Below, one piece after another: positions 10,019-29,701 of a stretch of 34,751 nucleotides of DNA; the stretch's first letter is position 1, and every line of letters begins with the position of its first letter. Under the pieces are notes generated by a model. The model searched no databases and was not told where the DNA came from. It saw only the letters and a program-made list of their open reading frames with translations. Source of the DNA: an uncultured Anaerolineae bacterium (lineage in GTDB: Bacteria > Chloroflexota > Anaerolineae > Aggregatilineales > Aggregatilineaceae); assembly GCA_966250245.1 (NCBI GenBank), contig CBINGT010000001.1, forward strand, positions 1 through 34,751, given 5' to 3'. Position numbers and translations under genes: made by a program.

Positions 10019-10115
10019 ACCCGATTTCGTGCGGATGGGGGCAGAGAGGGCAAGGAGCGCAAGCTTCGTTAACTAAGCATTGAGAAGCGGGGGCGCGTGT
10101 TGGGCGGCGTCACTG

Positions 10116-10144
10116 TTGACTACGATCTTGGCGCGGTGTATCAT
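10116..10144 (+). promoter_or_regulatory. Sigma-70-type promoter upstream of the DUF4388 gene
   Basis: TTGACT (10116-10121), a 17-nt spacer, then TATCAT (10139-10144), about 87 nt upstream of the ATG at 10231. Confidence 0.55.
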
Positions 10145-10230
10145 CGTTCGCGCCGATGATGTTGTCTGCGGCCAGCACACCGGCCATCACCCGCCCACCA
10201 TGACTAAACCCCAGAGTAGGAATTTCTTAC

Positions 10231-11133
10231 ATGGCGCTCAAAGGGAATCTGGCGGATTTCAGCACCACCCAAATCCTGAATCTGATCCATCTCGCGCGCA
10301 AGACCGGCACGCTGCGGCTGTTCGAGCCGGTGTTGACTGGCGAGATGATCACCGACGGCGCGGGAAACAAGCGCCCGCGCATCGTCGCGGGGAAAGAACG
10401 CGCCAGCATTGCGTTCCGCGACGGCAAGCTGATCCTGGCCGCGATGGGCGACCAGGACGGCCACCTGGCGAACGTGTTGCACAAGGCGGGCAAGCTCAAC
10501 ACGGAACAGGCGCGGATCATCCGCGAGCGCGGCGCGAAATATAGCGACAAGGCGCTGGCGCTGATGCTGATCAACGCCAACTACGTCACCCAGGCGGACG
10601 TCGTGCGCAGCATTAAGCAGCACACGGTCGATATCGTCTATGACGTAATGACGTGGGATCGCGAGCCGTTCATTTTCGAGGAGAATCTGACGCCGCCGCC
10701 AGACCGGATCACCGTCCCGATTGATCTTAAGAATGTGATCATCGAGGGGACGCGCCGCGCTCAGGAGATCAAGCCGCTCGAAGAGGAACTGCCGAACCTC
10801 GACATGGCGCTGAAGTTCCCTGAGGCGCCGGGCGAGAAGTTCCGTGGGATCCACCTCGGCGTGGATGAATGGCGCGTCGTCTCGTACATCAATCCGAAAA
10901 ATTCCATCCGCCAGATCGCCAAAGCCTGCAACATGACGGACACTGAGATCCGGCGCATCGTCTACGGGCTGCTGCAAGCCGGGCTGGTGCAACTGGTCCG
11001 CCCGCCGGGGATGCAGGCGCCCGCGCCGCAGGGCCCGACGGTGGTGGCTCGTCGCCCAACGCCGATCGCGCCGCCGACTACGGTCAAGCGTAGCGTGGTG
11101 GAGCGGCTGATCGCCCGGATCAAGGAGAGTTGA
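10231..11133 (+). CDS. DUF4388 (PATAN) domain protein with a C-terminal winged-helix-like segment, 300 aa
   Basis: N-terminus LKGNLADFSTTQILNLIHLARKTGTL and WDREPFIFEE are typical of DUF4388. The C-terminal part VDEWRVVSYINPKNSIRQIAKACNMTDTEIRRIVYGLLQAGLVQLV resembles the wHTH of DUF742/CvnC proteins. Confidence 0.82.
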   Translation: MALKGNLADFSTTQILNLIHLARKTGTLRLFEPVLTGEMITDGAGNKRPRIVAGKERASIAFRDGKLILAAMGDQDGHLANVLHKAGKLNTEQARIIRERGAKYSDKALALMLINANYVTQADVVRSIKQHTVDIVYDVMTWDREPFIFEENLTPPPDRITVPIDLKNVIIEGTRRAQEIKPLEEELPNLDMALKFPEAPGEKFRGIHLGVDEWRVVSYINPKNSIRQIAKACNMTDTEIRRIVYGLLQAGLVQLVRPPGMQAPAPQGPTVVARRPTPIAPPTTVKRSVVERLIARIKES

Positions 11134-11229
11134 TCGGGGTGCCCGGCATTATCATGTGGGGAGCGCCGGGCCCAAACTTTATCGCGCTGTAGGTTCAAGG
11201 CTTTATAGCATCGAAGAGTGAGATCGCTC

Positions 11230-11781
11230 ATGCCTATCCAAACCGTGAAGATGGTTGTCACCGGCCCATTCAGCGCCGGGAAGACGGAGTTCATCCGGTC
11301 GATCAGCGAAATCGACGTCGTCTCGACCGACGAGACGATTTCGCCGGGGTCTGAGGAATATGGCGTCAAAGAGCAGACAACCGTCGCGATGGACTTCGGT
11401 CGCATCACGGTCGACGACGACCTGGTGCTCTACCTGTTCGGGACGCCGGGGCAGCGCCGCTTCGACTTCATGTGGGAGATTCTGGCCGAGGGCATGCTGG
11501 GCTTCGTTGTCATGGTCGACAGCTCCCGCCCGGAGACCTTCCGCGAGGCGATGACCATCCTCGAAACTTTCCGCGCCTACGCGCCGACGCCCTACGTCGT
11601 CGCGGCCAACAAGCAGGATCATCCCGAAGCGTGGTCGCCGGACGACCTGCGGATCGCGTTGCGGATCGAGGACCATATCAAGCTGCTGCCGTGCGTGGCG
11701 ACCGACAAGGAAAGCGTCAAGAACGTGCTTCTCGAGCTTTTGTACTCCATCCTCGAGGAGATGGATGCCGCGCAGCAATAA
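11230..11781 (+). CDS. Small Ras-like GTPase of the CvnD / COG2229 (conservon) type, 183 aa
   Basis: G1 GPFSAGKT, G3 FGTPGQ and G4 NKQD motifs, plus TTVAMDFGR. An alternative GTG start lies at 11218. ATG 11230 follows the gagtgag RBS by 8 nt. Confidence 0.88.
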   Translation: MPIQTVKMVVTGPFSAGKTEFIRSISEIDVVSTDETISPGSEEYGVKEQTTVAMDFGRITVDDDLVLYLFGTPGQRRFDFMWEILAEGMLGFVVMVDSSRPETFREAMTILETFRAYAPTPYVVAANKQDHPEAWSPDDLRIALRIEDHIKLLPCVATDKESVKNVLLELLYSILEEMDAAQQ

Positions 11782-11844
11782 GAAGGCGGCGCGTATCCCG
11801 CCGGTATCCCCCGGCGGGCTGCTTAGAGGGGGGAGTGCGCGAAG

Positions 11845-12663
11845 GTGCCGCTACTGGTCACCGAACCCGGCATTATCCATTACGAGGCGTATGGTCGCGG
11901 GCGTCCGGTCTTGCTGCTTCACGGCTGGCTAGGATCATGGGCGCTCTGGCGCGATACGATCGAGGTGCTTGGGCGCGACTTCCGCACCTATGCGCTGGAC
12001 TTCTTCGGCTTCGGAGAGTCCGGGCTGGTTCCCGGGCAAGAGCAGGAACATCGCTCGTACGCCTACACCGTCCCGATCTATGTCGAGATGGTGTACCAGT
12101 TTATGGAGCGGATGGGCATCAAGCGGGCGCCGCTGATCGGGCACTCGATGGGCGGCACGGTGTCGCTTAGCACCGCGATCAAATATCCGGAGAAGGTGGT
12201 CAAGGTCGGCGTGATCGGCTCGCCGATCAACGGTGCGTCGCTCAATTTGCTGCTCAAGCTGTCGGGCAATCCGGCGATGGCGCGCTTTTTCTGGCTGTTT
12301 GGGGGGAAGGGTCTGCTGCTGTTTCTGCGCGTCTACAGTCACTTCATGGCACGGGACGGCCGGGCGATGGCGCGCATGATCACCAAAGACGTGTCGATGA
12401 TCAGCATGGAGTCGTTTTTCCAGAGCATCGGCACGCTGCGCCAGACCGACCTGCGCCCCGACCTCGGCAAAGTCAAGGTGCCGACGCTGGGGATGTATGG
12501 CAAGCGGGATATTATCGTCCGTCCCAGCGAGCACAGCGTTTTGAAAGCGGGCGTTCCGCACGCGCAGATCGAGTGGTTCCCGGACGCCGGGCACTTCATT
12601 ATGCTCGATTCGCCGCGCCGCTTCATCACCACGCTGAGCGACTTCCTGCACAACTCGGCCTGA
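11845..12663 (+). CDS. Alpha/beta hydrolase with intact catalytic triad, 272 aa, GTG start
   Basis: HGWLGSW oxyanion region, nucleophile elbow GHSMGG, Asp in GKRDIIV and His in DAGHFIM. Confidence 0.88.
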   Translation: MPLLVTEPGIIHYEAYGRGRPVLLLHGWLGSWALWRDTIEVLGRDFRTYALDFFGFGESGLVPGQEQEHRSYAYTVPIYVEMVYQFMERMGIKRAPLIGHSMGGTVSLSTAIKYPEKVVKVGVIGSPINGASLNLLLKLSGNPAMARFFWLFGGKGLLLFLRVYSHFMARDGRAMARMITKDVSMISMESFFQSIGTLRQTDLRPDLGKVKVPTLGMYGKRDIIVRPSEHSVLKAGVPHAQIEWFPDAGHFIMLDSPRRFITTLSDFLHNSA

Positions 12664-12695
12664 GCGCGCGGCCGGTGAGTGAAAGCTAAGCAGCC

Positions 12696-14063
12696 ATGCG
12701 CAAGTTCATCATCGAAGACAACCACATGATCGCGCCGTTCAACGAACCGGCCCGCGATCTGAGCATCCTCAACAAGCCGCTTAAGATTCACCACGCCGAT
12801 ATTCTGGAAGAAGTCCTCGGCCCGACCGAAGCCGAGATGCCGCTGCGCACGGTCCACGATCTGCCGCACGTCGCGCCGGGCCGCGACGAGTGCGTCGTCT
12901 ACCGCGATAACCTGTATTTTGACATCGAGTTTTTCACCGCATTCTTCGATCAGGCGCGGGCCAGCCAGCTTCCGAGCCGCGCCGTGCTGCCCGCCAGCGA
13001 CGCGGCGTGGATGAAGTACGCCGTCCCGCTCTCGCGGCTGGAGCCGGTGCGCGATCACAGCGGGGCGCCGCTCTATTACCCGCTCGACCTGTGGTACTTC
13101 CCGAAGGGGTACGTCGAGCAGCGGCACTGGCGCGAGGTCCCGATCTTCAGCGACTACCGCGAGAAGGGGTATTACAACGTCCCGGACTCGATGTCCAATC
13201 TCAAACCCGGCGCGCAGCCAGGTGTCGCGGAGCGCGACCTCGACCTGACGCACCTGTTGACCGAGCGCTCGTGCCTGTCGATCGATAGCTGGGTGCATGT
13301 TTATTTCGCAAACATCATCCTCGGCGTGTTCTCGCGCGGCAGCCGGTTTGAGGAATACCTCTCACGGCACAATTTCTTCGCGCTGAAGGTGCTGTTCCGC
13401 GCCATCTTAGAGCAGAAGCAGCTTCTGTCGTGCTCGAAGCTGGTGCAGGTTGGCGAGGGCACGATCATCGATCCGTCGGCGGTGATCCTGGGGCCGACGA
13501 CCATCGGGCGCGGCTGCTACATCGGCCCCGGCGTGGTGATCGACAACTGCGCGATCGGGGACTCGGTCAACATCGCGCAGGGTTGCCAGTTGATGCTGAG
13601 CGTGGTGGGGAACAACTGCTTTTTGCCGTTCCGCGCGGCGCTGTTCATGACGACGCTGATGGAATACACCATCATCGCGCAGAACACCTGCCTGCAAATG
13701 TGCGTCGTCGGGCGAAACAGCTTTGTCGGCGCGGGGACGACTTTCACCGACTTCAACCTGCTACCCGCACCGCTGCGAGCCATCAACGCGCGGGGCGAGC
13801 TGGACGACTCCGGCCAGCCGGTGCTCGGCGGGTGCGTGGGGCACAATGCGCGCATCGGCTCGGGGATGGTCATCATGCCTGCGCGCGTGGTCGAGTCCGA
13901 CTCGATCCTGGTCGCCTCGCCAGAGCGCCGCGTCATCGCCAAGAACATCTCGTATGAAGAGAGCGATCATCACAAGCTGCGCCCGTCGATCGCTCGCCTG
14001 CACAAGCGCCGCTATCCGCGCCAGGCGGAGTCTGAAGCGGCGTATCTGGAAGAATGGGAATAA
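12696..14063 (+). CDS. Hexapeptide-repeat (left-handed beta-helix) protein with a nucleotidyl/acyl-transferase-like N-terminal region, 455 aa
   Basis: Repeated [LIV]G-x4 turns: IGRGCY IGPGVV IDNCA IGDSVN IAQGCQ. The N-terminus KFIIEDNHMIAPFNEPARDL resembles putative sugar nucleotidyltransferase-like LbH proteins (from memory, low certainty). Confidence 0.72.
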   Translation: MRKFIIEDNHMIAPFNEPARDLSILNKPLKIHHADILEEVLGPTEAEMPLRTVHDLPHVAPGRDECVVYRDNLYFDIEFFTAFFDQARASQLPSRAVLPASDAAWMKYAVPLSRLEPVRDHSGAPLYYPLDLWYFPKGYVEQRHWREVPIFSDYREKGYYNVPDSMSNLKPGAQPGVAERDLDLTHLLTERSCLSIDSWVHVYFANIILGVFSRGSRFEEYLSRHNFFALKVLFRAILEQKQLLSCSKLVQVGEGTIIDPSAVILGPTTIGRGCYIGPGVVIDNCAIGDSVNIAQGCQLMLSVVGNNCFLPFRAALFMTTLMEYTIIAQNTCLQMCVVGRNSFVGAGTTFTDFNLLPAPLRAINARGELDDSGQPVLGGCVGHNARIGSGMVIMPARVVESDSILVASPERRVIAKNISYEESDHHKLRPSIARLHKRRYPRQAESEAAYLEEWE

Positions 14064-14107
14064 GCCGCCTGCTGGCATCCCCTGAGTTTGAGTAGACAAC
14101 AACCAAC

Positions 14108-15214
14108 GTGACTCAGCCAGACACTTTCGCTTTCATCATCCATCCCATCGACCCGAAGAAAGACGTCTCGCGCAAGTGGCCGCTGCTCGGCAAGGTGCTG
14201 ACGGAAGGGCAGATCAACTTCTTCTCGCGCTTCTTCCCGCCGGTCTACATTTCCGAGATCACCGGCGTGCGCTCGATTGCGACCGGCAAGACGGTGACCG
14301 GATGGTTTATCGCGTGCCCGTTTACGCCGTACACGATGCTCCACCTGCCGGTTGAGACGGTCTACCGCAAGATCGTCGCGTGCGGGCGCAAAGCCGAATC
14401 GCTCGGCGCGCGGCTGCTCGGCCTGGGCGCGTATACGTCTGTGGTCGGCGACGGCGGCGTGACGATTGCGGAGCGGCTCGATCTGCCCGTCACCAACGGA
14501 GACGCCTACACGATCTATATGGCTGTCGAGGCTGTGCGCGAGGCTGCTCGCCGGATGGACCTGCCCATGAGTAATGCATCGGCGGCGGTGGTCGGCGCAA
14601 CCGGCACCATCGCCAGCGTGTGCGCCGAGATCCTGTCGCGCGAGGTGCCAGAGCTTGTGCTGGTCGGGCGGCGGCCAGACGCATTGAACGAGGTCCGCGA
14701 GCGGTGCGAGGGCGGCATGGCGCGCGTGACGGTCAGCACCGACATCGCCAGCGTGTACCCGTGCGACCTGATCCTGACCGTGACAAGCTCGGTGTCCAGC
14801 GTGATCGAGCCGGAGCACCTCAAGCCGGGCGCAGTGGTGTGCGACGTCGCCCGCCCGCGCGACGTGTCGGTGCGAGTGGCGCAGGCCCGCCCGGACGTGC
14901 TGGTGATCGAGGGTGGGATGGTCGAGGTGCCGGGGCCGGTCGATTTCGGCTTCGATTTCGGGTTCCCGCCGGGCAAGTCGTACGCCTGCATGGCCGAGAC
15001 GATGGCGCTGGCGCTCGAAGGGCGCTACGAAGATTACAGCGTCGGCAAGCACATCAGCCTGGACCGCGTGCGCGAGATCGGGGCCATCGCCGCGAAGCAC
15101 GGCTTCCGGCTGAGCGGGTTCCGCAGCTTCGAGCGCGCGGTGACGGATGAGGAGATCGCGCGCGTCCGCGAGCGGGCGGCTGCGACACGCCGCCGGGGAT
15201 GGTCTCCGGGCTGA
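14108..15214 (+). CDS. Acyl-ACP reductase (AAR)-like NAD(P)-dependent oxidoreductase, 368 aa, GTG start
   Basis: FAFIIHP N-terminus. Dinucleotide motif VVGATGTIASV matches cyanobacterial AAR VVGATGDIGSA. ACMAETMALALEG matches AAR ACFAEAMLLEFEG, including the candidate acyl-accepting Cys. Confidence 0.72.
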   Translation: MTQPDTFAFIIHPIDPKKDVSRKWPLLGKVLTEGQINFFSRFFPPVYISEITGVRSIATGKTVTGWFIACPFTPYTMLHLPVETVYRKIVACGRKAESLGARLLGLGAYTSVVGDGGVTIAERLDLPVTNGDAYTIYMAVEAVREAARRMDLPMSNASAAVVGATGTIASVCAEILSREVPELVLVGRRPDALNEVRERCEGGMARVTVSTDIASVYPCDLILTVTSSVSSVIEPEHLKPGAVVCDVARPRDVSVRVAQARPDVLVIEGGMVEVPGPVDFGFDFGFPPGKSYACMAETMALALEGRYEDYSVGKHISLDRVREIGAIAAKHGFRLSGFRSFERAVTDEEIARVRERAAATRRRGWSPG

Positions 15215-15306
15215 TGGGCGACATCAGGACGGCAATATTAGCGTGTCGTCTTTACGCTGCCTCACTGGTGTTTCAATTGATTCGCTTGTATAGTTGGGGG
15301 CCAGGC

Positions 15307-15436
15307 GTTTAGCGAGCAGCGGTTAGCAATTATCAACACATCAGAACAGAAATGTTGGGCGCTGCCCACGCACGCGCCCGGGAACTGTGTCCGGGGATGC
15401 CGTCCGCAGCGAACTGCTAACCGCTAACGGCTAGCG
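15307..15436. repeat. Inverted heptamer-array bracket repeat B3
   Basis: Left arm gtttagc gagcagc ggttagc aattatc (15307-15334). Right arm gcgaact gctaacc gctaacg gctagcg (15409-15436). It ends 30 nt before the regulator start codon. Confidence 0.8.
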
Positions 15437-15466
15437 GATTACATGGCGGCATGGGAAGGTGAAGGT

Positions 15467-16375
15467 ATGGGTAAAGGAAGAATCCTCGTCGTCGAAGATG
15501 ATTTCGACATCTCGAACATGCTGCGCATCTACTTCGGCGGGCAGGGCTACGATGTGCAGGTTGCACCGCGCGGCGCCGACGCGTTGATGCTAACTCGCAA
15601 GCAGCTTCCGCAGTTGATCGTGCTGGATATCATGCTGCCCGATATGAACGGCTATGACGTCTGCCGGGAGCTACGTTCCACCACGCGCACCAGCCACATC
15701 CCGATCATCTTCCTGACGCAGAAGGACGAGCGCAGCGACAAGATCGCCGGGCTGGAACTGGGCGCGGACGATTACATCACCAAGCCGTTCGACATCGAAG
15801 AACTCAAGCTGCGGGTCAAGAACCAGATCGAGCGGGCTGCGCGCGACAATTACACCGATCCGAACAGCGGCCTGCCGAGTAGCTCGCTGATCGAGGAGAA
15901 GCTGCGCGACCTGATCCGCGAGGACGCCATCTGGACGTACATCGACATTCGCATTCTGCACTACGACGCGTTCAAAGATGTCTACGGGTTCGTCGCGGCC
16001 AACGAGCTTCTGCGCTTCATGGCGCTGCTGCTCGGCGAGGTGCTGGACGAGCTAGGCACGCCGGACGACTTTCTCGGACACGCGGGCAGCGACAACTTCG
16101 CGGTGATCACCTATTCCGACCGCGCTACGGCGCTGATCGACCGGCTGGTGAAGCGCTTCTCTGAGGGCGTGCAGCAACATTATTCGTTCATCGACCGCGA
16201 GCGCGGCTATTTGCTGCGGGACGACGAGCGCGTCCCGTTGATGACGCTGGCAGTCGGCGCGATCTCGAACGCCAACCGGCAGTATGCGGACATTCGCGAG
16301 ATCACCGAGCTTGCGGCGGAAAACCGTCGCCGGGGCCGCACCGAGGACGACGCGCCGATCGCGGCGGAATGGTAA
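15467..16375 (+). CDS. Response regulator: REC domain plus degenerate GGDEF domain, 302 aa
   Basis: REC motifs VVEDD, LIVLDIMLPDMNG, FLTQ and ITKPF. The GGDEF position reads GSDNF (HAGSDNFAVI). The I-site RxxD position reads TPDD. Strong RBS ggaaggtgaagg precedes ATG 15467. The track ORF begins at 15443. Confidence 0.88.
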   Translation: MGKGRILVVEDDFDISNMLRIYFGGQGYDVQVAPRGADALMLTRKQLPQLIVLDIMLPDMNGYDVCRELRSTTRTSHIPIIFLTQKDERSDKIAGLELGADDYITKPFDIEELKLRVKNQIERAARDNYTDPNSGLPSSSLIEEKLRDLIREDAIWTYIDIRILHYDAFKDVYGFVAANELLRFMALLLGEVLDELGTPDDFLGHAGSDNFAVITYSDRATALIDRLVKRFSEGVQQHYSFIDRERGYLLRDDERVPLMTLAVGAISNANRQYADIREITELAAENRRRGRTEDDAPIAAEW

Positions 16376-16449
16376 GCGCCCAGGGCGATCGGTCCACCGA
16401 CGGGCGACGGGCCGGGGAATGACCCGGTCCGGCAGGCGAGCGGAATTCT

Positions 16450-22400: not shown

Positions 22401-25400
22401 CACGCCCGAGCTCCTTCTGCCGCTGGAAGGCAACCTGTCGATCGAGCAGGTCCGCAAGTCGCACCGCCCGCTGGTGTCGCCGGACGTGCTGAACGACCCG
22501 CTGTTCGAGTCGGCGTGGCCGGTGCTGCGCCAGCGCAATACGCGCTCCCTGATGATCGTGCCGCTGGTGGTGGGCAACACGGTGATCGGCACGATCGGGC
22601 TGGACTCGACCGAGCCGCGCCAGTTCACCGAGGCCGAAGTCGAGCTGGTGCAGACCATCGCCGGGCAGGCGTCGCTGGCGATCGAGAAGGCGCGCCTCTA
22701 CAGCGAAACGCTCGGCCTGACGATCTTCAACCAGGCGGTGGTCGAGTCGATCCGCCAGGGGATCGTCGTGCTGGACCGTGACCTGCGCGTGCGTCGCGTC
22801 AACCGCTTCATGCGCGAGCATTACGGCTGGTCTGAAGACGCGCTCGATCAGCCGCTGTTCGAGTACCGGCCCGATTATGGCGAGTTCCTGCGCCAGCCGA
22901 TCGCGGTGGCGCTGGAGCGCGGCGAGCCGCAGGCGCAGTTTGAAGTGGAGCGCGGCGCGAACGAGAGCCACCGCTCGATCCGCAACTATTACGTCTACCC
23001 GATGCAGGAAGGCCGGACGGTTACCGGCATCGTGCTGCTGGTCGAAGACGTGACCGAGCGCGCGCTGCTTGAGGCGGACCTCAGCACCCGCGCGATGCAG
23101 ATGGCCGCGCTGTCCGAGGTGTCCAGCCAGATCACCTCGACGCTCGAAGCCGATCAGGTCGTCCAGCTCATCCTTGACGCGCTGGACCGCGTGATCCCGT
23201 ACGATGGCGTGTCGTTGTGGTTGCGCTCGCCAGAGCGCGAAGAACTGGCGATTGTGGCGGCGCGTGGCTATCGCGACCCCGACTCGCCCGATGCCGACGA
23301 GCTGGTCGGCCTGCGCGTGGAAATCGCCTACAGCCCGCTGTTCCGCGAGATGGCCGAGCGCGCCGAAGTGATCAACGCCGGAGACGTCAGCGCCGGGGAC
23401 GAGCGCTTCCCGTATGGTGCGGCGGCGGTGTACAAGAACTGGCTTGGCGCGCCGCTGATCAGCAAGGGGCGCGTCGTCGGCGTGCTGACGCTCGAAAAGC
23501 GCGAGCCGCATTATTACACCCCGCTCCACGAGCAGCTTGCCCTGACGTTCGCCAGCCAGGCGGCGGTTGCGCTGGACAACGCGCAACTCTTCGAGGAAAC
23601 CCGCGCCCGTGCCAGCGCGCTCGACGAGCAGGCGCAGCGGCTGGCGCTTCTCAACCGCGTGTCGCTGGCGCTGGCGCAGTCGCTCGATATGGAGAACATC
23701 CTCGAGATCGCGCTGCGCGAGACGGCGATCGCGCTGGACATCTCCGAAGGCTCCGCCATGCAGATCGACTATCCGGGGCAGATCGGGCGCGTGGTGGTCG
23801 ACTTCCCGCGCGGTGATACCCCGCCCGACAAGGTGTTCGAGCTGTCGAACAGCCCGATCTTCGAACGCGTGCGCGACAGCCTGATCCCGGTCGTGATCGA
23901 GAACGTCGCGGCGGACCCGCACCGTGACGAGCTACGCGCGATGATGCGCCGCGACGACATTTCGAGCACTATGCTCGTCCCGCTGGTGATTGGCGGGATC
24001 GTGATTGGCATTTTGCGGTTGGACTCGGTTGAGGCGCGCCAGTTCTCGCTGACGCAGATTGAGTTGGCGCAGACCATCGCCAGCCAGGCCGCGATCGCCG
24101 TGCAGAACGCCTCGCTGTTCGAGCAATCTGCCGTGCGCACGCGCGAGCTTGAGACGCTATTCGAGTCTGCCCAGGCCACCGCCATGACGCTCGATCTGGA
24201 CGAGGTCGCGCAGCGGGTGGCGGAGCAGGTCGTGTCCGCGCTGCGGGCGGACGCGGCGGCCGTCTATCTGTGGGACGACGTCAGCAACCGTCTGACGCTG
24301 CACGGTGCGGGCTGTGGCGAGGGAGTCGACGCGCCGCTTGTCACGCCCGGCGAGCGGGTCAGCGTGGGCGACTATCCGCTGCGCGAGCGGGCGCTCCACG
24401 AGCGGCGGCTCATCCTGGCGCGCGCCGGAGATGACGATCTGCCGCCGGGCGAAGCAGCGATTTTCGCGGAGCACGGCGCGGCGAGCCGCCTTCTGCTGCC
24501 GCTGGTGCTCAACGAGGTGTCGATCGGGCTGGTCGAGGTCGAGACGATCGACCCGAAGCGGTTGTTTAAGTCCGAAGAACTGCGTCTGGCGCGGACGCTC
24601 GCCAGCCAGGCCGCGATCGCGATTGAGAACGCGCGCCTGCAAACCGAGACGCGCCGCACGGTCGAGGAACTGTACATCATCAACGACCTGTCGGCGGCGC
24701 TGTCGTCTGCGACGAGCCTGGATGCGCTGCTGGACGTGCTGGACGCGCAGCTTCCGAGTCTGACGCAGGCCGAGGCGATCTACGTCGCGCTGATCGATCC
24801 CGAAACCGGATGGCTGACCTTCCCGCTGGCAACCGCGAACGGCGAGGCGCTGGAGCTTGCGCCGCGCCCGCTGGGCAACGACGAGTTTTCGACCATCATC
24901 CGCCGCCAGGCGCCGCTGTTGCTGGCCGGGGAGAGCGTTGAGGCGGCGCGCAAGAACCTGGGCATCGAGACGATCCTGCCACCGGAAGCAAAAAGCTTTG
25001 TAGGCGTGCCGCTGTTCGCAGGCGAGCAGATCATCGGCGTGCTGGCCGTGCGCGACGACGACGATCCGCTGGCGTTCAGCAGCGCGGATCAGCGCCTGCT
25101 GACGACGGTCGGCTCGCAGTTGGGCGTCGCAATCCAGAGCACGCGCCTGCTGCAACAAACGCGCAATCTGGCCGAAGACCTCGAGAAGCGTGTCGAGGAG
25201 CGCACCGCCGAGTTGGAGCGGGAGCGCCAGCAGCTTTCGACGCTGTACCAGATTACGACCGAGCTGGCGACCAGCCTCGACATCGACCGGCTGCTCAACC
25301 GCGCGCTGGAGATGGTTGCAGAAGCGACGGGCGCCAGCCGCGCGGCGATCTTCACGCTCGACGAGCTGGGCGATCGCCTGACGCGGCGCGCGACGTTCGG

Positions 25401-26907
25401 CGAGACGCCCGCCCAGGGCGAAGACCAGCCGCTCTCGCTGGCGCTGGACGAGGGGCTGGCGGGCTGGGCCGTCCGCAACCGGCAGAGCGTGATTGTGGAC
25501 GATGTGCAGCAAGATCCGCGCTGGCTGCGCCTCACCCCGGCCGACGACTCGCCGCGCTCTGCCCTGGTGGCGCTGATCACTGCCGCCGAGGAAGTGCTCG
25601 GCGTGATGATGCTGGTCAGCGAGCAGCCGGGCGCGTTCACCGCCGATGACCTGCGGCTGGTGGACGCCTCGACCAACCAGATCGCCAACGCGATGAACAA
25701 CGCGGAACTCTACAGTCTGATCCGCGACCAGGCAGAACGCCTCGGCGCAATGCTGCGCGCCGAGCAGGTCGAGGCGACCAAGAGCAACGCGATCCTCGAC
25801 TCGGTGGCGGACGGCGTGATGGTCGCCGACGAGAGCGGCCGTGTGATCGGCTTCAACTCGACGGCCGAGCGCATTCTCAACCTGCCCGCCAGCCAGGTGA
25901 TTGGGCGCCCGTCCTCGGTGGTGGCGGGGCTGTACGGCAGCGGCGGGCGCTGGCTGCAGACGGTCGACCGCTGGCGGCAGGAGCCGCAGTCGTACCGGCC
26001 GGGCGAGTTCCTTGAAGACCGTCTGGAACTGGAAGACGAGCGCGTGATCAGCGTGCGTCTGTCGCCGGTGTACCTGGGCGATCAGTTTCTGGGGACCGTG
26101 TCGGTCTTCCGCGACATCACGCGCGAGGTCGAGGTGGACCGCCTCAAGAGCGAGTTCGTCGCCACGGTATCGCACGAGCTTCGCACGCCGATGACCTCGA
26201 TCAAGGGCTACGCGGACCTGCTGCTCGGCGGGATGGCCGGGCCGGTGTCCGAGCAACAGCATTATTTCCTCGAGGTCATCAAGCAGAACACCGACCGGCT
26301 GAGCATCCTGGTCAACGACTTGCTTGACATCTCGCGCATCGACCAGCAGCGTGTCGTGCTGGAACTGGGCGATGTGCCTGTGCGCGAGGTGCTTGAGAGC
26401 GCGATGGCGCACTTGCAGGAGCGTATCGAAACCGAGCAGCGCGACATGACGCTGGTCCTCAATCTGCCAGACGACGCCGCGTGGAGCGTCTGGGGCGACC
26501 GCGAGCGCGTCGGGCAGATTATCACCAACCTGGTCGACAACGCGTTCAACTACACGCCGCCGGGCGGGATGATTACGCTCGCCGCGCATCCGGGCGCGGG
26601 CGGCGACTCGGTCATCCTCAGCGTCGCAGACACGGGTATCGGCATCCCGCCGGAGATCGGCGAGCGCGTGTACGAGCGCTTCTTCCGTGGCGACGAGGCG
26701 CAGGAACTGGTGATGGACACGCCGGGCACCGGCCTGGGGCTGTCGATCGTGCGGGAGTACGTGGCGATCCAGCACGGGCGCATCTGGTTCGAGAGCGAGC
26801 CAGGCCAGGGCACGACCTTCTACGTTGAACTGCCTACGTCGGCTAATGTGTCGCTGGCCGAGGTAACCGAGAGCGAGATTAAGACCGGCCCGCTGAGCAG
26901 GGAGTAA
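16450..26907 (+). CDS. Giant multi-GAF/PAS sensor histidine kinase, 3485 aa
   Basis: N-terminal TM helix (IEVYLILTGVIFAAWIALLVW), then a PAS-like region. About sixteen modules of roughly 165-195 aa each carry a GAF-type strand (for example IVPLVVGNTVIGTIGLD) and end in QAAxAIENARLY-type helices. PAS domains lie near 22700-23050 and 25780-26130. H-box SHELRTPMTSI has its His codon at 26173-26175. HATPase N/G boxes are DNAFNYTP, DTGIGIP and GTGLGLSIV. Confidence 0.97.
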   Translation: MIEVYLILTGVIFAAWIALLVWQARRGASGELTPNRPFVPLTLVEGDEAVVVAEAHGRVVYANEQACAWFGTDGGTPDLALMAQLIQPADAFLDLFAQPGHAALRLGQRQLEAMSHAIPAAEGQRMVVVLREMTGTGTLAAPTDFDPLEALTLQTDIAQAAGAEQGLAPTIDAVLRIVERAIPFDAAEVLLWQADSQTLRTVGRFTQLTATGSLIPPEAQEQATVAVGEGYSGWIALYRQPLLVNNATARDDYALRPGQQPFESFLGIPLLLEDRLVGTLELTRRTPDSYTQQDVALLQAIAGQIVAAVEGARVRSEQTARMHELAGLQQISAVISRLGDSRELYAQLTQRIAQLAGVELCGIMLYDPDEEVYRSQPPFYGVPESLTRGHRIEMAPGSELYDALMHRPFWYTNDPDSPITAALGLTDVQAAITLRRVAIVPMVIGTRRVGLLLVANKHGGQRFTDADMRALIAFGNQAAMVVENARLYDDAQQRSRELGGLQQIAEAIGALRNPEELYAQITRRVAELMDVERCGVLLYDPQTQVLVSQRPFFGLDDESISFYQLPSPPGSVIAELWQERPTWYCNDLRRDPLASESDLARMATALGIEQIALAPLIVRGTRRGMIQIANKRSGEFTEDDARILSLFAGQAAILIDNAQLYGEMQRRTHQAEGLRVITEFASEARPLHETTEQILIALANLYEAECVAIALVDESRGQLVFDPSNVWGVTLDEPLAIDLTGPDGALSVLSDRRTAHYTAADVPAPYRDVAKRLGWREVARVPLVIREQVIGDLTVANRLNGQRMDDSDFQLLTPIATQIAAMIDRMRLYATSDEALRARVDSLERLGHIARSLHRTVELDRILEEVRGAALRSTGASGVSIVLFAPAEDWPAPDAPLVERRFGEDDALTDLVPIEWGAFGGEPVVVDDYAETGWAAQPARARSALSVPLLVDGAALGVLHLFSSEPRAFDARAQAFVDALADEAAIAIASARRYQAQLEQNQQLRTRADHMDRIFEVGELFRRGAALEELLAEVAQSVRESVGFNSVLISVVDDDAKVLRRIAYAGLLRATFEQMQSVTPPLEQALSLMQPEYQISHSYFLPAEGTEGLIETLPTVQVVGEKMGPGARAWHPDDILLIPFYGVGGRLLGLMTVDDPRSGRRPDLATVEALEVFAGQAAFSIENFRLIARIQQEAEATRRERDRLAQLHMVASEIQRATDVPARLQVVADGIHQAGWGKVFITLRDEHLEPTALIQAGYSPEEALELDVKSGKTWRAWINDLAFHELKLGAGYYLRYDRPWVRHHVYHDAPPDPPEVGPTEWHPEDTLYLTLVGQDQKRIIGIIGMRDPADGRVPTASSLQPFELFASQAAAAIETTRLYLETVNAAEQEARLNELMEAVSGSLQPEAVIEAIATGLQQTIPFTRLHVALGDPDATALDVWRAEIALDGSVTVREVDPIPAAGTALRRAYDDKTPHIYSLDSDEAARTEFNDLRAWYEAGERSSLIVPMIAGGQPIGALHLGTQLSGAPGFAEHLTLIQRLANLSSVALDNARLFANAQQRAAELDAQARRLALINRVSTRVSESLDPQEIYQTALSELQTVLGAQYGGVIIYENDATGLLVLDTHPLAGAEQQDVRITLRDNPSVEQVRRTQRPLVAEDVMTDPRFVPDRPILAERGTRAMMVVPLVAGDEVIGSIGLDFTSPRTFTDAEIELAGTIASQVSLALDKARLLRETEQRAGELNQQAQRLAFLNRLSAKLAETLDPDELYYIVLTELQKAIGAQYGGLMLIQEGGTVSRLVLSTHPFDVDAPADITVPVQGNPIAEYILSTQQPFVAEDLLNDPRFEPMWEVQEARDVRAMLIVPVVIGGRVIGTIGLDSNVPRRFTDDEIELAMTAANQAAVAIEKARLFVEVQQRAQTLDEQAQRLALVNRVATRLAETLDPQEIYRIVLSELAEALRVPLAGLVLFESETVGRLVLSYPFEEGTPELLLPLEGNLSIEQVRKSHRPLVSPDVLNDPLFESAWPVLRQRNTRSLMIVPLVVGNTVIGTIGLDSTEPRQFTEAEVELVQTIAGQASLAIEKARLYSETLGLTIFNQAVVESIRQGIVVLDRDLRVRRVNRFMREHYGWSEDALDQPLFEYRPDYGEFLRQPIAVALERGEPQAQFEVERGANESHRSIRNYYVYPMQEGRTVTGIVLLVEDVTERALLEADLSTRAMQMAALSEVSSQITSTLEADQVVQLILDALDRVIPYDGVSLWLRSPEREELAIVAARGYRDPDSPDADELVGLRVEIAYSPLFREMAERAEVINAGDVSAGDERFPYGAAAVYKNWLGAPLISKGRVVGVLTLEKREPHYYTPLHEQLALTFASQAAVALDNAQLFEETRARASALDEQAQRLALLNRVSLALAQSLDMENILEIALRETAIALDISEGSAMQIDYPGQIGRVVVDFPRGDTPPDKVFELSNSPIFERVRDSLIPVVIENVAADPHRDELRAMMRRDDISSTMLVPLVIGGIVIGILRLDSVEARQFSLTQIELAQTIASQAAIAVQNASLFEQSAVRTRELETLFESAQATAMTLDLDEVAQRVAEQVVSALRADAAAVYLWDDVSNRLTLHGAGCGEGVDAPLVTPGERVSVGDYPLRERALHERRLILARAGDDDLPPGEAAIFAEHGAASRLLLPLVLNEVSIGLVEVETIDPKRLFKSEELRLARTLASQAAIAIENARLQTETRRTVEELYIINDLSAALSSATSLDALLDVLDAQLPSLTQAEAIYVALIDPETGWLTFPLATANGEALELAPRPLGNDEFSTIIRRQAPLLLAGESVEAARKNLGIETILPPEAKSFVGVPLFAGEQIIGVLAVRDDDDPLAFSSADQRLLTTVGSQLGVAIQSTRLLQQTRNLAEDLEKRVEERTAELERERQQLSTLYQITTELATSLDIDRLLNRALEMVAEATGASRAAIFTLDELGDRLTRRATFGETPAQGEDQPLSLALDEGLAGWAVRNRQSVIVDDVQQDPRWLRLTPADDSPRSALVALITAAEEVLGVMMLVSEQPGAFTADDLRLVDASTNQIANAMNNAELYSLIRDQAERLGAMLRAEQVEATKSNAILDSVADGVMVADESGRVIGFNSTAERILNLPASQVIGRPSSVVAGLYGSGGRWLQTVDRWRQEPQSYRPGEFLEDRLELEDERVISVRLSPVYLGDQFLGTVSVFRDITREVEVDRLKSEFVATVSHELRTPMTSIKGYADLLLGGMAGPVSEQQHYFLEVIKQNTDRLSILVNDLLDISRIDQQRVVLELGDVPVREVLESAMAHLQERIETEQRDMTLVLNLPDDAAWSVWGDRERVGQIITNLVDNAFNYTPPGGMITLAAHPGAGGDSVILSVADTGIGIPPEIGERVYERFFRGDEAQELVMDTPGTGLGLSIVREYVAIQHGRIWFESEPGQGTTFYVELPTSANVSLAEVTESEIKTGPLSRE
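21121..22710 (+). repeat. Intragenic tandem array of diverged GAF-module units (about 531-534 bp period)
   Basis: The linker Q(Q/E)RAxELDxQAxRLAxxNR recurs in frame at 21121, 21652 and 22186, and again at about 23602. The units share LDPxE(I/L)Y..L.EL and DPRF...R(A/S)(L/M)(M/L)(I/V)VP(L/V)V.G..VIG(S/T)IGLD. I estimate DNA identity at about two-thirds by eye. Confidence 0.8.
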
Positions 26908-26919
26908 TCGGAAGCACGC

Positions 26920-27303
26920 ATGGCGAAAATCCTGATTGCAGAAGACGAGCGAGACATCCGCGACCTGATCGAGTTCACGTTGAAGTATGCGGGGCACGAG
27001 GTGTTTAAAGCGCGTAACGGAGCCGAAGCGGTAGAGATGGCGCCGCAGGTGAAGCCAGACCTGATCGTGCTTGACGTGCGGATGCCGCGCATGACCGGCT
27101 ACGAAGCCTGCCGCCAGCTTAAAGCCCACGACGAGCTAAAGGACACGCCGATTGTGTTCCTCTCGGCCAAGGGGCAGCAGAGCGAGATGGAAACCGGAAT
27201 CGATGCCGGAGCGTATGACTACATCCTCAAACCGTTCGCGCCAGACACGCTCATCCGGCGTGTGGGCGAGATTCTCGCCAAGTTTGGCGTCGGCGGGGCG
27301 TAA
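26920..27303 (+). CDS. Single-domain CheY-like response regulator, 127 aa
   Basis: IAEDE, LIVLDVRMPRMTG, FLSAK and ILKPF motifs. It starts 12 nt after the kinase stop, with RBS ggaag. Confidence 0.93.
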   Translation: MAKILIAEDERDIRDLIEFTLKYAGHEVFKARNGAEAVEMAPQVKPDLIVLDVRMPRMTGYEACRQLKAHDELKDTPIVFLSAKGQQSEMETGIDAGAYDYILKPFAPDTLIRRVGEILAKFGVGGA

Positions 27304-27345
27304 GATGAGTGGGCGTCCGATCCGCGCGGCGCGGCAGGGTGTTGT

Positions 27346-28353
27346 ATGAGCGCGCTGACGATTGAGCAGGACCTCGTCCACTACGAGGCGCTTGGGCGCG
27401 GCCGCCCGGTGATCCTCGTCCACGGCTGGCTCGGCTCGTGGCGCTACTGGATCCCCGCCATGCAGCAGCTCAGCGGCAAATATCGCAGCTATGCACTCGA
27501 CCTGTGGGGGTTCGGCGAAAGCGCGAAAGAGCCGCTCCGTTACGGGTTTGAGGAGCAGGTCCGCCTGCTGAACGAGTTCATGGAGCGGTTGGGGATCGCG
27601 AAGGCGGCGCTGGTCGGGCACGGCCTGGGCGCGGCGATCGTGACCCGCTTCGCGTTGCAGGCGCCGGATCGCGTTTCGCGCGTGATGGCGGTCAGCCCGC
27701 CGCTGTTCCACATGCCGCCTGCGCCGGAGCCTGTCGAGCCACCCAACACGCCGCGCCCGGAGATGTTCGGTCCCATTCCCTTCCGCGTGGACACTGAAGC
27801 CGAGACGATCGGGCTGCGGACCGAGGAAATGAACGCTCGCTTGCGCGCGGCCTTCGAGCGCGAGGCACAGCGGCTTGCCGCGGGCATCCCCGCGCCCGAG
27901 CCGCCCGCCGAGACGCGCCCGCCGCTCCCCAACCCGCTACGCGAGCGGTTGGAAACGGTCGATCCGGTGGCGCTGCTGACCCGCCACGCCGATCCCGGTC
28001 CGAACCTCGACAAGCTGCTGGTTGAGGTCCGCAAGGCCGACCCCGCCGCCGTCGCGCAGACGATAGAAACGATGGCCGGGGTGGACACCTTGCGCGAGCT
28101 TCAGCGCGTGCAGCCGCCGGTGCTGGCGGTGTACGGCAGCGAGGATACGATGCTCCCCGCGCCGGATAGCGACATGCTCAATGCTCTGCGCGCCGATGGC
28201 CGTCCGTTCCACGCGATCGAGATGCGCGGGCTGCGTCACTTCCCGATGTTAGACGACATCGCCGCGTTCAACCGCCTGCTGATGGACTTCCTCGAAGCCG
28301 CCGATCCGACGCGCGTCACCATCAAGGAGCGCTGGGAGCGGCGGGTGCGCTAG
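27346..28353 (+). CDS. Alpha/beta-hydrolase-fold paralog with the nucleophile Ser replaced by Gly (probable pseudoenzyme) and an expanded Pro-rich lid, 335 aa
   Basis: The N-terminal 100 aa is clearly paralogous to the 11845-12663 product (HYEA.GRGRPV.L.HGWLGSW..W...YALD..GFGES...FMER.GI). The nucleophile elbow reads GHGLGA (codon ggc at 27620-27622). Asp (GSEDTML) and His (LRHFPML) are retained. Confidence 0.8.
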   Translation: MSALTIEQDLVHYEALGRGRPVILVHGWLGSWRYWIPAMQQLSGKYRSYALDLWGFGESAKEPLRYGFEEQVRLLNEFMERLGIAKAALVGHGLGAAIVTRFALQAPDRVSRVMAVSPPLFHMPPAPEPVEPPNTPRPEMFGPIPFRVDTEAETIGLRTEEMNARLRAAFEREAQRLAAGIPAPEPPAETRPPLPNPLRERLETVDPVALLTRHADPGPNLDKLLVEVRKADPAAVAQTIETMAGVDTLRELQRVQPPVLAVYGSEDTMLPAPDSDMLNALRADGRPFHAIEMRGLRHFPMLDDIAAFNRLLMDFLEAADPTRVTIKERWERRVR

Positions 28354-29374
28354 ACGCCTCGCACAGCGGGCACGTGCGCCGCGCGGGCGTGCGTGCCGTT
28401 TCCGCTTCGCTCATCAGGTGATCCAGCCAATGCGCCTCAAGTTGATTGAGTTCGAGGCCGTAGACGCCCTGATAGTCGGCGAGCGTAACGTAGAGCACCC
28501 GCTCCTCGTCCGTTTCGACCCATTCCCACTTCGGCGAGCGGAACAGCACCTCTAGCCGCTCGTAACCGTATTCGTACAGCAGAAACTCGATGAACGACGC
28601 CCATTCCGTGTAGAGGATGTCGCGGCTCACCAGGCAGTCTCCCCCGGAATAGGCTGGCTCAAGATCGTAGTGCTCACGCAGCGACAGGTACTTCGACTGC
28701 TCAAAATGGGCGCGCACACTGTCGCTGAAGGATGTCGTTCCCTGCCAGGCGTGCCAATACCGTCCCGCTGCCCACGTCGCCATCCCTTCACTATGACCCG
28801 CCTCGGCAGGCATCCACCGCTGCTCGTTATTCCGCTGGGTCAGCACATGGCCGAGTTCGTGCGCCAAGACGCCCATGATCTGCGTATGGCTGGTATTCTC
28901 GTCCGTGTAGATAACGATTTCAGGCGGGTAATCACCGGCGTAGGGGTCGGACGGTGGTGATACTATGGCAAGACCCCTAACAGGGCAGACGTTCGAATCC
29001 GGGCGCTCAAAGAGGATGATCGTTTTCTCGTCGCTGGTGACTTCGAGCCGTGTGCTGACGTAGTCATACACTTCTTCCGCGTCGCGGGCGAACTGCTCCG
29101 GATCATCGACCGGGAAATAGCCCCTGCTCGCATGAATGAGAAAGTGGTCCGTCTCGGCTATAAGCTCTAGGTTGCCCATGAAATCTGGCGGGATGTGTAG
29201 GGCGTTTTCGTCAAACTCAGCGAACAACGGTTCATCCAATTGGAACGACTGTGTTGGCATAGGGTCTGGCGTGGGCGTGGCGTCGGTTTGGGCCGAGGCA
29301 GGGATGGAATACGCCAAAAAGGCGCCCCCAAGCAGCAAACACAGGCCGCTAAGAGCCGGGATCACTCGACGCAT
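28322..29374 (-). CDS. Secreted zinc metalloprotease-like protein (HEXXH), 350 aa
   Basis: Signal peptide MRRVIPALSGLCLLLGGAFLAYSIPASA. HELGH motif followed by a downstream HSEG. Visibly more A/T-ending codons than its neighbours. Its 3' end overlaps the convergent gene by 32 nt. Confidence 0.7.
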   Translation of the reverse strand: MRRVIPALSGLCLLLGGAFLAYSIPASAQTDATPTPDPMPTQSFQLDEPLFAEFDENALHIPPDFMGNLELIAETDHFLIHASRGYFPVDDPEQFARDAEEVYDYVSTRLEVTSDEKTIILFERPDSNVCPVRGLAIVSPPSDPYAGDYPPEIVIYTDENTSHTQIMGVLAHELGHVLTQRNNEQRWMPAEAGHSEGMATWAAGRYWHAWQGTTSFSDSVRAHFEQSKYLSLREHYDLEPAYSGGDCLVSRDILYTEWASFIEFLLYEYGYERLEVLFRSPKWEWVETDEERVLYVTLADYQGVYGLELNQLEAHWLDHLMSEAETARTPARRTCPLCEASSAPAAPSAP

Positions 29375-29479
29375 ACGCTGTTTCTCCTTTCAAAATGTAG
29401 TTTGTAAGGAGTGACGCTCACATTCACCATACATGGACTTCTCCCCGCCGGCAATGACCGATTCTCCGACGTTGATCGC

Positions 29480-29508
29480 TTGGCAGAACCCCGGCGCCCT
29501 GCTATAGT
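29480..29508 (+). promoter_or_regulatory. Sigma-70-type promoter of the thiamine operon
   Basis: TTGGCA (29480-29485), a 17-nt spacer, then TATAGT (29503-29508), immediately upstream of the riboswitch. Confidence 0.6.
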
Positions 29509-29524
29509 CAAAGTGAGAACATTC

Positions 29525-29630: not shown

Positions 29631-29646
29631 TGGCATAAGACCGAGG

Positions 29647-29678
29647 ACCACTCGCTGCGCCGCGAGTGGTTTTTGTTT
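29647..29678 (+). terminator. Intrinsic terminator acting as the riboswitch expression platform
   Basis: 9-bp stem accactcgc / gcgagtggt with a 6-nt loop, followed by tttttgttt. It lies between the aptamer and the thiN start. Confidence 0.8.
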
Positions 29679-29701
29679 GGCGCGAACGCGCGGAGAGCAG
29701 G

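Follow-up and report, generated by a model that had tools for sequence, protein, structure and literature searches.

Conservons encode the sensor kinase CvnA, proteins of the Roadblock and DUF742 types and a GTPase, which are sometimes joined by a GAF or P450 accessory protein modulating the kinase (PMC13343842). In the MglA family of GTPases, PATAN genes were noted near the GTPase genes of groups 1 and 5, including members from Chloroflexi (Wuichet & Søgaard-Andersen, citing Makarova et al.; PMC4316618), and PMC3000849 gives for MglA the Thr78 feature, a G3 motif without the canonical Asp. PATAN provides the output domain in regulators of the PatA type, in which it is joined to a receiver (REC), and it binds PilB and PilC in Synechocystis (bioRxiv 10.1101/2021.06.11.447907). 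Here, a block of nine genes is described in which a PATAN protein, a small GTPase and a giant histidine kinase are encoded around a pair of enzyme-like proteins. It lies within positions 10116-28353 of a DNA stretch of 34,751 nt (the window) from an uncultured Anaerolineae bacterium (contig CBINGT010000001.1, GCA_966250245.1). A preliminary description of this DNA had named no system combining all of these parts, and full-text literature searches likewise found no description of the combined block or of a fixed PATAN-GTPase-hydrolase triad. The block points to an undescribed, widely conserved form of bacterial G-protein-linked two-component signalling built from familiar parts. Its carriers, the Anaerolineae, are filamentous bacteria that abound in sludge, sediments and the subsurface; most of them are uncultured, and their sensing and signalling are little understood.

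Nine open reading frames (ORFs) on the plus strand fill positions 10231-28353 in one direction throughout (Table 1), and all ORFs and domains were as described before. Gene calls were based on ORFs together with Pfam and NCBIfam scans, and the evidence is wholly comparative. The genes form three modules. M1 comprises the PATAN protein p1, the GTPase p2 and the α/β hydrolase ABH1 (p3); M2 consists of the left-handed β-helix (LbH) protein p4 and the AAR-like reductase AARL (p5); M3 contains the receiver protein p6 with a degenerate GGDEF-like domain, the GAF kinase p7, the CheY-like receiver p8 and the α/β-fold protein ABH2 (p9). From p1 to p9, the intergenic gaps measure 84, 63, 32, 44, 228, 74, 12 and 42 nt. 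Short gaps had been reported as 12-97 nt with one of about 250 nt; the values 97 and 250 were counted from internal ATGs (11230 and 15467) and are corrected to 84 and 228. At position 10116, formerly taken as the start of the cluster, there is no gene start but the -35 hexamer of a promoter-like site. There are two sigma-70-like matches in 9800-29700, one ahead of p1 and the other ahead of a TPP riboswitch outside the cluster, and no terminator-like sites were seen on the plus strand between the cluster genes. Short gaps, one promoter-like site upstream of p1 and the lack of terminator-like sites between the genes are a layout supporting a functional connection.

A profile of the LbH family was searched against one genome per GTDB species, yielding at least 556 related stretches. 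The best 80 of these were taken with flanks of up to 10 kb, and the window proteins were located in them by tblastn. Presence was scored in the same way, and ORF clustering was set aside on account of antisense 'shadow' families in high-GC DNA. The best LbH loci came nearly all from Anaerolineae or other Chloroflexota (Anaerolineae, Aggregatilineales, Thermoflexus, Ardenticatenia), with one labelled Pleurocapsa. Gene patterns were counted in the 47 LbH-anchored loci whose flanks reached 4 kb or more upstream and 6 kb or more downstream, taking PATAN-GTPase-ABH1 as M1 and the REC-degenerate GGDEF protein plus the GAF kinase as M3. The full order PATAN/DUF4388, GTPase, ABH1, LbH, AARL, REC-degenerate GGDEF, multi-GAF kinase (M1-LbH-AARL-M3) was found in 18 of the 47, and LbH-AARL-M3 in another 13. 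Five loci each showed M1-LbH-AARL, M1-LbH or LbH-AARL, and one locus M1-LbH-M3. M2 is the core, or hub, of the cluster. Flanks of 10 kb do not extend beyond the kinase gene, and ABH2-anchored loci were used there; kinase, CheY and ABH2 follow each other in five out of five (45-57% identity), including the cultured Aggregatilinea lenta. Among GTPase-anchored loci, PATAN-GTPase-ABH was present in three of three, followed by LbH-AARL in two and the GAF kinase in one, with different upstream genes each time. An incidental gene list for Anaerolinea thermolimosa also gives, in this order, DUF4388, an Srp102-type GTPase, an MhpC hydrolase and a glmU-like LbH protein (PMC8756737).

The order persists down to about 50% LbH identity, and the outer flanks diverge between distant loci. 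Downstream of ABH2, the thiamine operon of the window is found in close relatives and unrelated genes in L085-L087, so that the conserved block ends at ABH2. In L013 and, as an independent event, in L049/L055, M3 lies upstream of the hub in inverted orientation. Inversion of M1, to a place 4 kb upstream, is seen in L042/L043, and in L092 M1 stands alone. Inserted genes, namely a V4R gene, an ORF of about 400 aa and an insertion sequence (IS) element in L091, do not disperse the block. Gene content, the state of the catalytic motifs and this modular, conserved synteny were observed directly: the three modules are separable, and inversions keep them adjacent while the flanks diverge. A lack of conserved gene order had been named beforehand as a finding that would refute the cluster; conserved order was found across many Anaerolineae and survives independent rearrangements. 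The block appears to be an Anaerolineae-wide conserved neighbourhood and so far restricted to this class.

Two kinds of insertions deserve mention in their own right. Seven relatives (L091 10437-11099, L056, L060, L045, L039, L038, L050) have, between ABH1 and LbH, a gene for a V4R-domain protein of 220 aa that is absent from the window; the proteins are 58-98% identical to each other, with a Cys-rich C-terminus and a predicted small-molecule-binding domain. Between LbH and AARL, a plus-strand ORF of 383-415 aa was seen in L009 (11331-12515), L013 (11383-12552), L020 (11391-12638) and L028 (9624-10775), and the three of these four that were scanned had no Pfam match. The same position is occupied by a minus-strand ORF of 451-550 aa in L054, L056 and L069; it is a major facilitator superfamily transporter in L054 and without Pfam match in L056.

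Retained proximity despite inversions and insertions argues for selection on proximity. The synteny could also be due to descent, with two or three independent operons left unshuffled within one class and not functionally coupled: a housekeeping LbH-AARL pair for lipid or envelope functions, a polarity module formed by PATAN and the GTPase, and a multi-GAF two-component system unrelated to either. Consistent with this, each module occurs without the others (e.g. L002, L092), M2 alone in five loci; the 228-nt gap between M2 and M3 contains a repeat element; and all loci are from Anaerolineae, so that common descent inflates synteny. Among closer relatives, unrelated neighbours are also kept, namely a DUF3048 gene (32 loci) and the operon for thiamine pyrophosphokinase and ABC transport after ABH2. 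Since these neighbours are retained and a single class was covered, part of the synteny signal is shared ancestry. Descent without coupling, on the other hand, does not readily explain an order kept to about 50% LbH identity where each locus has outer flanks of its own, three or more independent inversions that leave the modules within a few kb, accessory insertions (V4R, the ORF of about 400 aa) inside the block without dispersal, and a gap of only 32 nt between M1 and M2 in the window. It is regarded as rather unlikely, and as the foremost of the alternatives.

M1 is a triad that is never split. Its first protein, p1, matches DUF4388/PatA_N (Pfam PF14332, E 3.5e-19). The DUF4388 half of the former designation DUF4388-wHTH is thus confirmed, and the winged helix-turn-helix (wHTH) half goes back to a MarR_2 match below the cut-off (E 0.0024). 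By tblastn, p1 was found in 45 of 82 relatives, each time directly upstream of the GTPase gene. The GTPase p2 matches ATP_bind_1 (8.4e-20), Arf and Ras in Pfam, and an Arf GTPase (9e-09) and MglA (1e-05) among PDB structures. Its G1 motif is GPF(S/N)xGKT; G3 reads GTPGQ and G4 NKQD, both in 48 of 48 orthologues. With intact G1 and G4 and a G3 lacking the canonical Asp, p2 shows the G3 type of the MglA family, and its earlier assignment as CvnD-type holds at the level of the MglA family/COG2229 only. Conservation of p2 is far stronger than that of its neighbours: identity is 79-90% in relatives with LbH proteins 51-83% identical, 79-86% where the LbH proteins are 51-55% identical, and the range of 79-90% spans orders. 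In a search for distant relatives of p2, made to see if M1 extends beyond Anaerolineae, the 120 best clusters were all at least 83% identical, and none more distant was reached.

Among the window ORFs, Pfam detected no MglB (Roadblock) GTPase-activating protein (GAP) adjacent to p2, which would be an 'orphan' GTPase in the sense of PMC4316618. Robl_LC7 (Roadblock, CvnB/MglB-type) had no match in the cluster or its flanking ORFs, and such a gene would not fit into the gaps, none of which exceeds 228 nt; DUF742 (CvnC) had no Pfam match in the same ORFs. L001 is the one relative with a Roadblock gene, at a distance of 6-7 kb upstream. The third member of the triad, ABH1, matches Abhydrolase_1 (2.2e-28) and has GHSMGG in every orthologue covering the site; its Asp and His positions are conserved too, giving a complete nucleophile-His-acid triad. 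ABH1 stays with the PATAN and GTPase genes even when M1 is inverted (L042/L043) or alone (L092). It had been grouped with the lipid enzymes and segregates with the GTPase instead.

In M2, the earlier annotations as hexapeptide-repeat protein and AAR-like reductase were borne out by Pfam and NCBIfam. The best Pfam model for p4 is the LbH domain of eIF2B (LbH_EIF2B, 1.2e-12), accompanied by Hexapep; GlmU models of NCBIfam were all far below their cut-offs. An AlphaFold2 (AF2) model of p4 is confident for the N-terminal α/β domain and poor for the C-terminal half, with predicted confidence (pLDDT) below 50 for residues 351-455. Any statement on an active site in the β-helix was dropped at this low confidence. 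Foldseek matched RmlA, ST0452 and tlr0611 weakly (E about 1e-4, TM 0.2-0.4), placing the N-domain with RmlA-type nucleotidyltransferases and matching ST0452 and tlr0611 over the whole protein. These weak matches support a predicted architecture of nucleotidyltransferase (NT)-like α/β domain plus LbH. The N-terminus of p4 reads FIIEDNHMIAPFNEP in place of the G-x-G-x-R nucleotide loop; within KFIIEDNHMIAPFNEP, P14-F15-N16 are invariant in the family, and a family-specific PFNEP motif replaces the loop.

For p5, the PigE model matched best (1.5e-65), with 222 bits against a cut-off of 850 and model positions 2-358 of 837 covered. The AAR model TIGR04058 gave 114.7 bits and its curated cut-off of 449.7 was missed. 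PDB matches were PigE (4ppm, 1.6e-38) and AAR (6jzq, 4.9e-27). Cys294 of p5 aligns with Cys294 of AAR (ACMAET and ACFAEA, respectively), the catalytic residue in SeAAR. The Cys is present in every orthologue covering the site, and a Rossmann GATGxI motif is found as well. No aminotransferase domain dependent on pyridoxal phosphate (PLP) is fused to p5, and the window ORFs include no ADO or ferritin-like protein near it. Since its score falls well short of the AAR equivalog cut-off and it has no ADO or aminotransferase partner, p5 is a relative of the family and neither AAR nor PigE. For the N-domain of PigE, reduction of a thioester to the aldehyde has been shown (PMC8341465). The most likely reaction of p5 is conversion of an acyl-thioester to an aldehyde or another acyl-derived product.

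The likeness of AARL to the PigE N-domain raises the question of a regulated small biosynthetic cluster, in which ABH1, LbH and AARL would make an acyl-derived metabolite according to a PigE-like logic and the two-component genes would merely control transcription. A hydrolase, an acyltransferase-like protein and a reductase are indeed encoded side by side. Several observations speak against such a cluster. No partner of the polyketide synthase or non-ribosomal peptide synthetase, ADO, aminotransferase or transporter type was found among the window ORFs, and both receivers are without a DNA-binding output. ABH1 goes with the GTPase and not with LbH-AARL. The LbH-AARL pair occurs almost throughout the class and is passed on vertically, unlike the patchy clusters for specialised metabolites. 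This explanation is judged improbable.

A similarly low probability is given to another possibility, namely that the 'enzymes' are regulators of the GTPase. LbH and the α/β-fold proteins would then replace the Roadblock GAP and the DUF742 guanine nucleotide exchange factor (GEF), or would acylate or deacylate the GTPase, and the GAF kinase would serve as a CvnA-like input. Precedent exists for a kinase, a GTPase and accessory proteins acting together (PMC13343842). Roadblock and DUF742 are missing from the cluster, and conservation of the GTPase far exceeds that of its neighbours. ABH1 cannot be separated from the GTPase, LbH is directly next whenever M1 is present, and p4 combines LbH_EIF2B as its top Pfam match with the absence of a nucleotidyltransferase signature. 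However, in eIF2Bε the GEF catalysis resides in another domain, no sequence or structural similarity to a known GAP or GEF was found, LbH-AARL occurs without M1 nearby in 18 of the 47 loci, and the conserved Cys and Rossmann motif of AARL favour real thioester chemistry.

M3 starts with p6, a receiver (Response_reg, 6.8e-29) with a conserved phospho-acceptor context LDIMLPD and a GGDEF-like domain (2.1e-05). In place of GGDEF, the window protein has GSDNF; nearly all orthologues listed have G(S/R/N)(D/N)NF and one has PNDF. None has GG(D/E)EF, and no RxxD motif was found upstream of the domain. p6 thus lacks the active-site motif of diguanylate cyclases. The second receiver, p8 (Response_reg, 1.7e-31), has the D, S and K signature residues. 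Both proteins keep the receiver signature, and neither carries a DNA-binding or enzymatic output.

The kinase p7 consists of an N-terminal hydrophobic helix, a PAS-like region, 11 GAF domains, PAS, five GAF domains, PAS, HisKA and HATPase_c. Pfam counts 14 GAF domains; with a profile of our own, 15 full-length domains and one partial were found, which agrees with the 16 counted before. The H-box SHELRTP and the G-boxes are present and kept, and LPxR occurs nowhere in p7. Pairwise identity among the GAF domains is 14-51%, and GAF9-11 and GAF13 are the only ones with the look of more recent duplicates. GAF9, GAF10 and GAF11 are 47-51% identical and correspond to a DNA repeat period of 525-534 nt at 21100-22700 (residues ~1578-2086); they are a younger tandem triplication within an old, diverged array. 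A bilin- or cyclic nucleotide (cNMP)-binding GAF array was considered and rejected: p7 has six Cys in 3485 aa and none conserved in the GAF array, which makes bilins unlikely, and the domains are too diverged for one common ligand. In the ABH2-anchored loci, the kinases are 2669-3133 aa long (L083, L085, L086, L087), and one is split. The latter, on a long-read contig (L001/L084, contig_68413), consists of five consecutive ORFs of 392, 166, 1079, 1074 and 277 aa, most likely by frameshift errors and not by real gene fission.

ABH2 is a paralogue of ABH1, the N-terminal halves being 41% identical (E 2e-32). The block had been described as bracketed by the two; the paralogy is real, and the bracket is loose, ABH1 being encoded by the third gene. 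The reported Ser-to-Gly change in the nucleophile elbow was found as well (GHSMGG in ABH1, GHGLGA in ABH2). Among 120 family representatives, however, this position of ABH2 is D in 65, G in 37, S in 13 and A in five. The idea of a 'pseudo-hydrolase' gains support because the nucleophile is not conserved, with the qualification that the commonest state is Asp and not Ser. The His motif HFPML is kept in 118 of the 120. About 120 N-terminal residues and a C-terminal W-x-RRVR tail are strongly conserved, and a variable Pro/Ala-rich lid insert lies between them. This pattern fits a conserved binding role rather than turnover. The nearest solved relatives of ABH1 and ABH2 are MCP hydrolases, epoxide hydrolases and arylesterases. 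A minus-strand ORF of 350 aa (28322-29374) lies in convergent orientation to ABH2, with an overlap of 32 nt at the 3' end of ABH2; this ORF had no Pfam, NCBIfam or PADLOC match and is annotated in public assemblies of the same organism.

From these data, the chances are even that, in general form, the modules are functionally coupled as a signalling neighbourhood around an enzyme core. The competence of the parts is conserved: GHSMGG in ABH1, the Cys of AARL, G1, G3 and G4 of the GTPase, and the H- and G-boxes of the kinase. We infer every protein-protein link, every ligand link and the direction of flow in the following scheme. The core pair LbH-AARL would act on an acyl-thioester. The membrane-anchored kinase p7, with its 16 GAF and two or three PAS domains, would integrate cytoplasmic ligands or signals and phosphorylate the output-less receivers p8 and p6, and ABH2 may be a largely non-catalytic accessory or ligand-binding subunit of the kinase, in a role comparable to CvnF or CvnE. 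Because the receivers have no output of their own and PATAN is normally fused to a receiver, the phosphorylated receivers could act in trans on the PATAN/GTPase switch (p1, p2), as a 'split PatA'. Switch and kinase together would control the LbH-AARL chemistry or be fed back by it. In the preliminary description, the enzymes were proposed to make an acyl-derived ligand sensed by the GAF array or ABH2, with output through the receivers and the GTPase. The reverse, control of the enzyme pair by the signalling modules, agrees with the data just as well; with LbH-AARL as hub and M1 and M3 optional, 'regulators beside their target' is at least equally fitting. A further reading, which has little probability, would be a new type of bacterial G-protein system with the almost invariant MglA-family GTPase governed by acyl-thioester chemistry in place of Roadblock and DUF742. 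LbH, as an eIF2Bε/γ-like pseudo-nucleotidyltransferase, AARL and the α/β-fold proteins, ABH1 active and ABH2 with a dispensable nucleophile, would be making, removing or sensing an acyl mark or ligand that sets the GTPase/PATAN switch, and the kinase would be feeding in via the 'split PatA'.

Besides the separability of the modules, the origin of all relatives from one class and the retention of unrelated neighbours, several points weigh against functional coupling. The model of the C-terminal half of p4 is poor and its nucleotidyltransferase signature is missing, GAP and GEF (Roadblock, DUF742) are not encoded nearby, and the 228-nt gap with a mobile-looking repeat parts M2 from M3 and makes separate transcripts possible. 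In addition, all of the evidence is comparative.

Table 1. Features of the conserved block in the window (module, position, strand and basis of assignment)
Feature	Module	Position	Strand	Basis or remark
Promoter-like site TTGACT-17-TATCAT		10116..10144	+	87 nt upstream of p1; consensus match only
p1, PATAN (DUF4388/PatA_N) with wHTH-like C-terminus	M1	10231..11133	+	Pfam
p2, small Ras-superfamily GTPase, MglA-family-like	M1	11218..11781	+	Pfam, PDB matches
p3 (ABH1), α/β hydrolase with intact catalytic motif	M1	11845..12663	+	Abhydrolase_1
p4 (LbH), NT-like N-domain and left-handed β-helix	M2	12696..14063	+	Pfam, AF2, Foldseek
p5 (AARL), AAR/PigE-N-type NAD(P)H thioester reductase-like	M2	14108..15214	+	PigE model, PDB
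Dispersed intergenic repeat in the M2-M3 gap		15304..15432	.	repeat families D11, D12; pairs I16, I20, I22
p6, REC and degenerate GGDEF-like domain	M3	15443..16375	+	Pfam
p7, 3485-aa multi-GAF histidine kinase	M3	16450..26907	+	Pfam and own GAF profile
p8, CheY-like single-domain receiver	M3	26920..27303	+	Response_reg
p9 (ABH2), α/β-fold paralogue, 3' end of conserved block	M3	27346..28353	+	Pfam, comparison with ABH1

The repeat element reported to fill the largest gap was confirmed. It is built from AGCGGTTAGC / GCTAACCGCT units, has inverted arms (AGCGGTTAGC ... GCTAACCGCTAAC) and also occurs in three other intergenic regions, with GCTAACCGCTAAC / AGCGGTTAGC copies at window positions 106-217, 8023-8211, 15304-15432 and 31206-31383. 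A separate 63-nt hairpin repeat (CCCCTCTCC...GGAGAGGGG) is found at both window ends (11-73 and 31283-31345). These dispersed repeats look like a genome-wide element of the type of repetitive extragenic palindromes (REP) or miniature inverted-repeat transposable elements (MITE). In an Rfam scan of the window, no family matched the gap repeat, and the fold of the 228-nt gap is not significantly stabler than that of shuffled sequence (z -1.68).

The only Rfam match in the window is the TPP riboswitch (29524-29639, plus strand, 56.1 bits), outside the cluster and behind a promoter-like site at 29480-29508. It is followed by genes for thiamine pyrophosphokinase, an ABC permease, an NMT1/THI5-type binding protein and an ABC ATPase, and the region 29480-33275 looks like a thiamine salvage and uptake operon. 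A minus-strand ORF overlapping the riboswitch (29390-30031) is probably spurious. On the other side of the block, the DUF3048 gene kept in 32 related loci (9032-10018, minus strand) is divergent from the PATAN gene. Farther upstream, genes for YbjN-like (TY-Chap1), trypsin-like (c15, 18 loci) and Ser/Thr kinase proteins recur in 10-18 loci. These genes and DUF3048 could be further members of the neighbourhood or inherited synteny. Genes for DprA and an M32 carboxypeptidase are upstream of the cluster in the window (2308-6293) and downstream of ABH2 in L087 (14776-18292); the block was therefore moved or inverted relative to these neighbours. A SMODS-associated NUDIX (Sa_NUDIX) protein is encoded at 7402-8019 on the plus strand and upstream of the cluster in 14 related loci. 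It matches the PADLOC models for a CBASS 2TM effector and a DRT-associated NUDIX protein, with no cyclase or other defence gene beside it. A role of the cluster itself in anti-phage defence was considered and rejected: six of its eight scanned proteins (kinase excluded) had no PADLOC match, and the receivers gave weak receiver-domain matches only.

With relatives of its hub LbH in at least 556 stretches, the block is among the most conserved non-housekeeping neighbourhoods of the Anaerolineae. If its modules cooperate, a further phylum would join the actinobacterial conservons and Myxococcus polarity as a setting of signalling by a kinase together with a Ras-like GTPase; the regulators would be other ones, and a pair of acyl-thioester enzymes would be built in. 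ABH2 would then be a natural case of an α/β hydrolase family drifting to a non-catalytic role. Cultured carriers, Aggregatilinea lenta for M3 and Anaerolinea thermolimosa for M1 and LbH (PMC8756737), allow these ideas to be tested.

Comparison with known systems shows partial likeness in each case. RsbQ-RsbP, cited as a precedent in the preliminary description, is similar in concept only, as an α/β-fold protein beside, and presumably assisting, a PAS/GAF sensor. A PP2C domain is absent here, RsbQ is catalytically active whereas the nucleophile of ABH2 is variable, and RsbQ was not among the 60 best solved-structure matches listed for ABH1 or for the ABH2 profile. AAR and the N-domain of PigE share fold, family and the aligned Cys294 with p5, which differs from them in having no ADO or aminotransferase and in being paired with LbH. 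GlmU, ST0452 and eIF2Bε-γ have the two-domain NT plus LbH architecture of p4, but sequence similarity is confined to the hexapeptide turns and PFNEP stands for G-x-G-x-R. In PatA, PixG and PixE, PATAN is controlled by a receiver, and a PATAN protein and stand-alone receivers are also encoded in the block described here; PATAN is, however, fused to a wHTH-like region and not to REC, and the neighbourhood is free of type IV pilus and chemotaxis genes. MglA systems are resembled by the G3 motif of p2 (GTPGQ compared to TVPGQ in MglA) and by the PATAN gene directly before the GTPase gene. The published association of PATAN with MglA is 'occasional', whereas the PATAN-GTPase-hydrolase triad is fixed here and without nearby MglB, and a link of PATAN-GTPase to LbH-AARL and a GAF kinase is not described for MglA systems. 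Finally, the block shares with the conservons the pairing of a sensor histidine kinase gene with one for a small Ras-like GTPase of the MglA family/COG2229 type, GAF-containing sensory parts are present, and accessory proteins modulate the kinase in the conservons (PMC13343842, PMC4316618). The conservon-like composition proposed at first did not hold, as Roadblock, DUF742 and a CvnA-type kinase are all absent. Unlike CvnA, p7 carries PAS and 16 GAF domains and lacks HAMP/NIT and the C-terminal LPxR. The block also contains two receivers, of which conservons have none, and it adds PATAN, two α/β-fold proteins and the LbH-reductase pair, in Chloroflexota instead of Actinomycetota.

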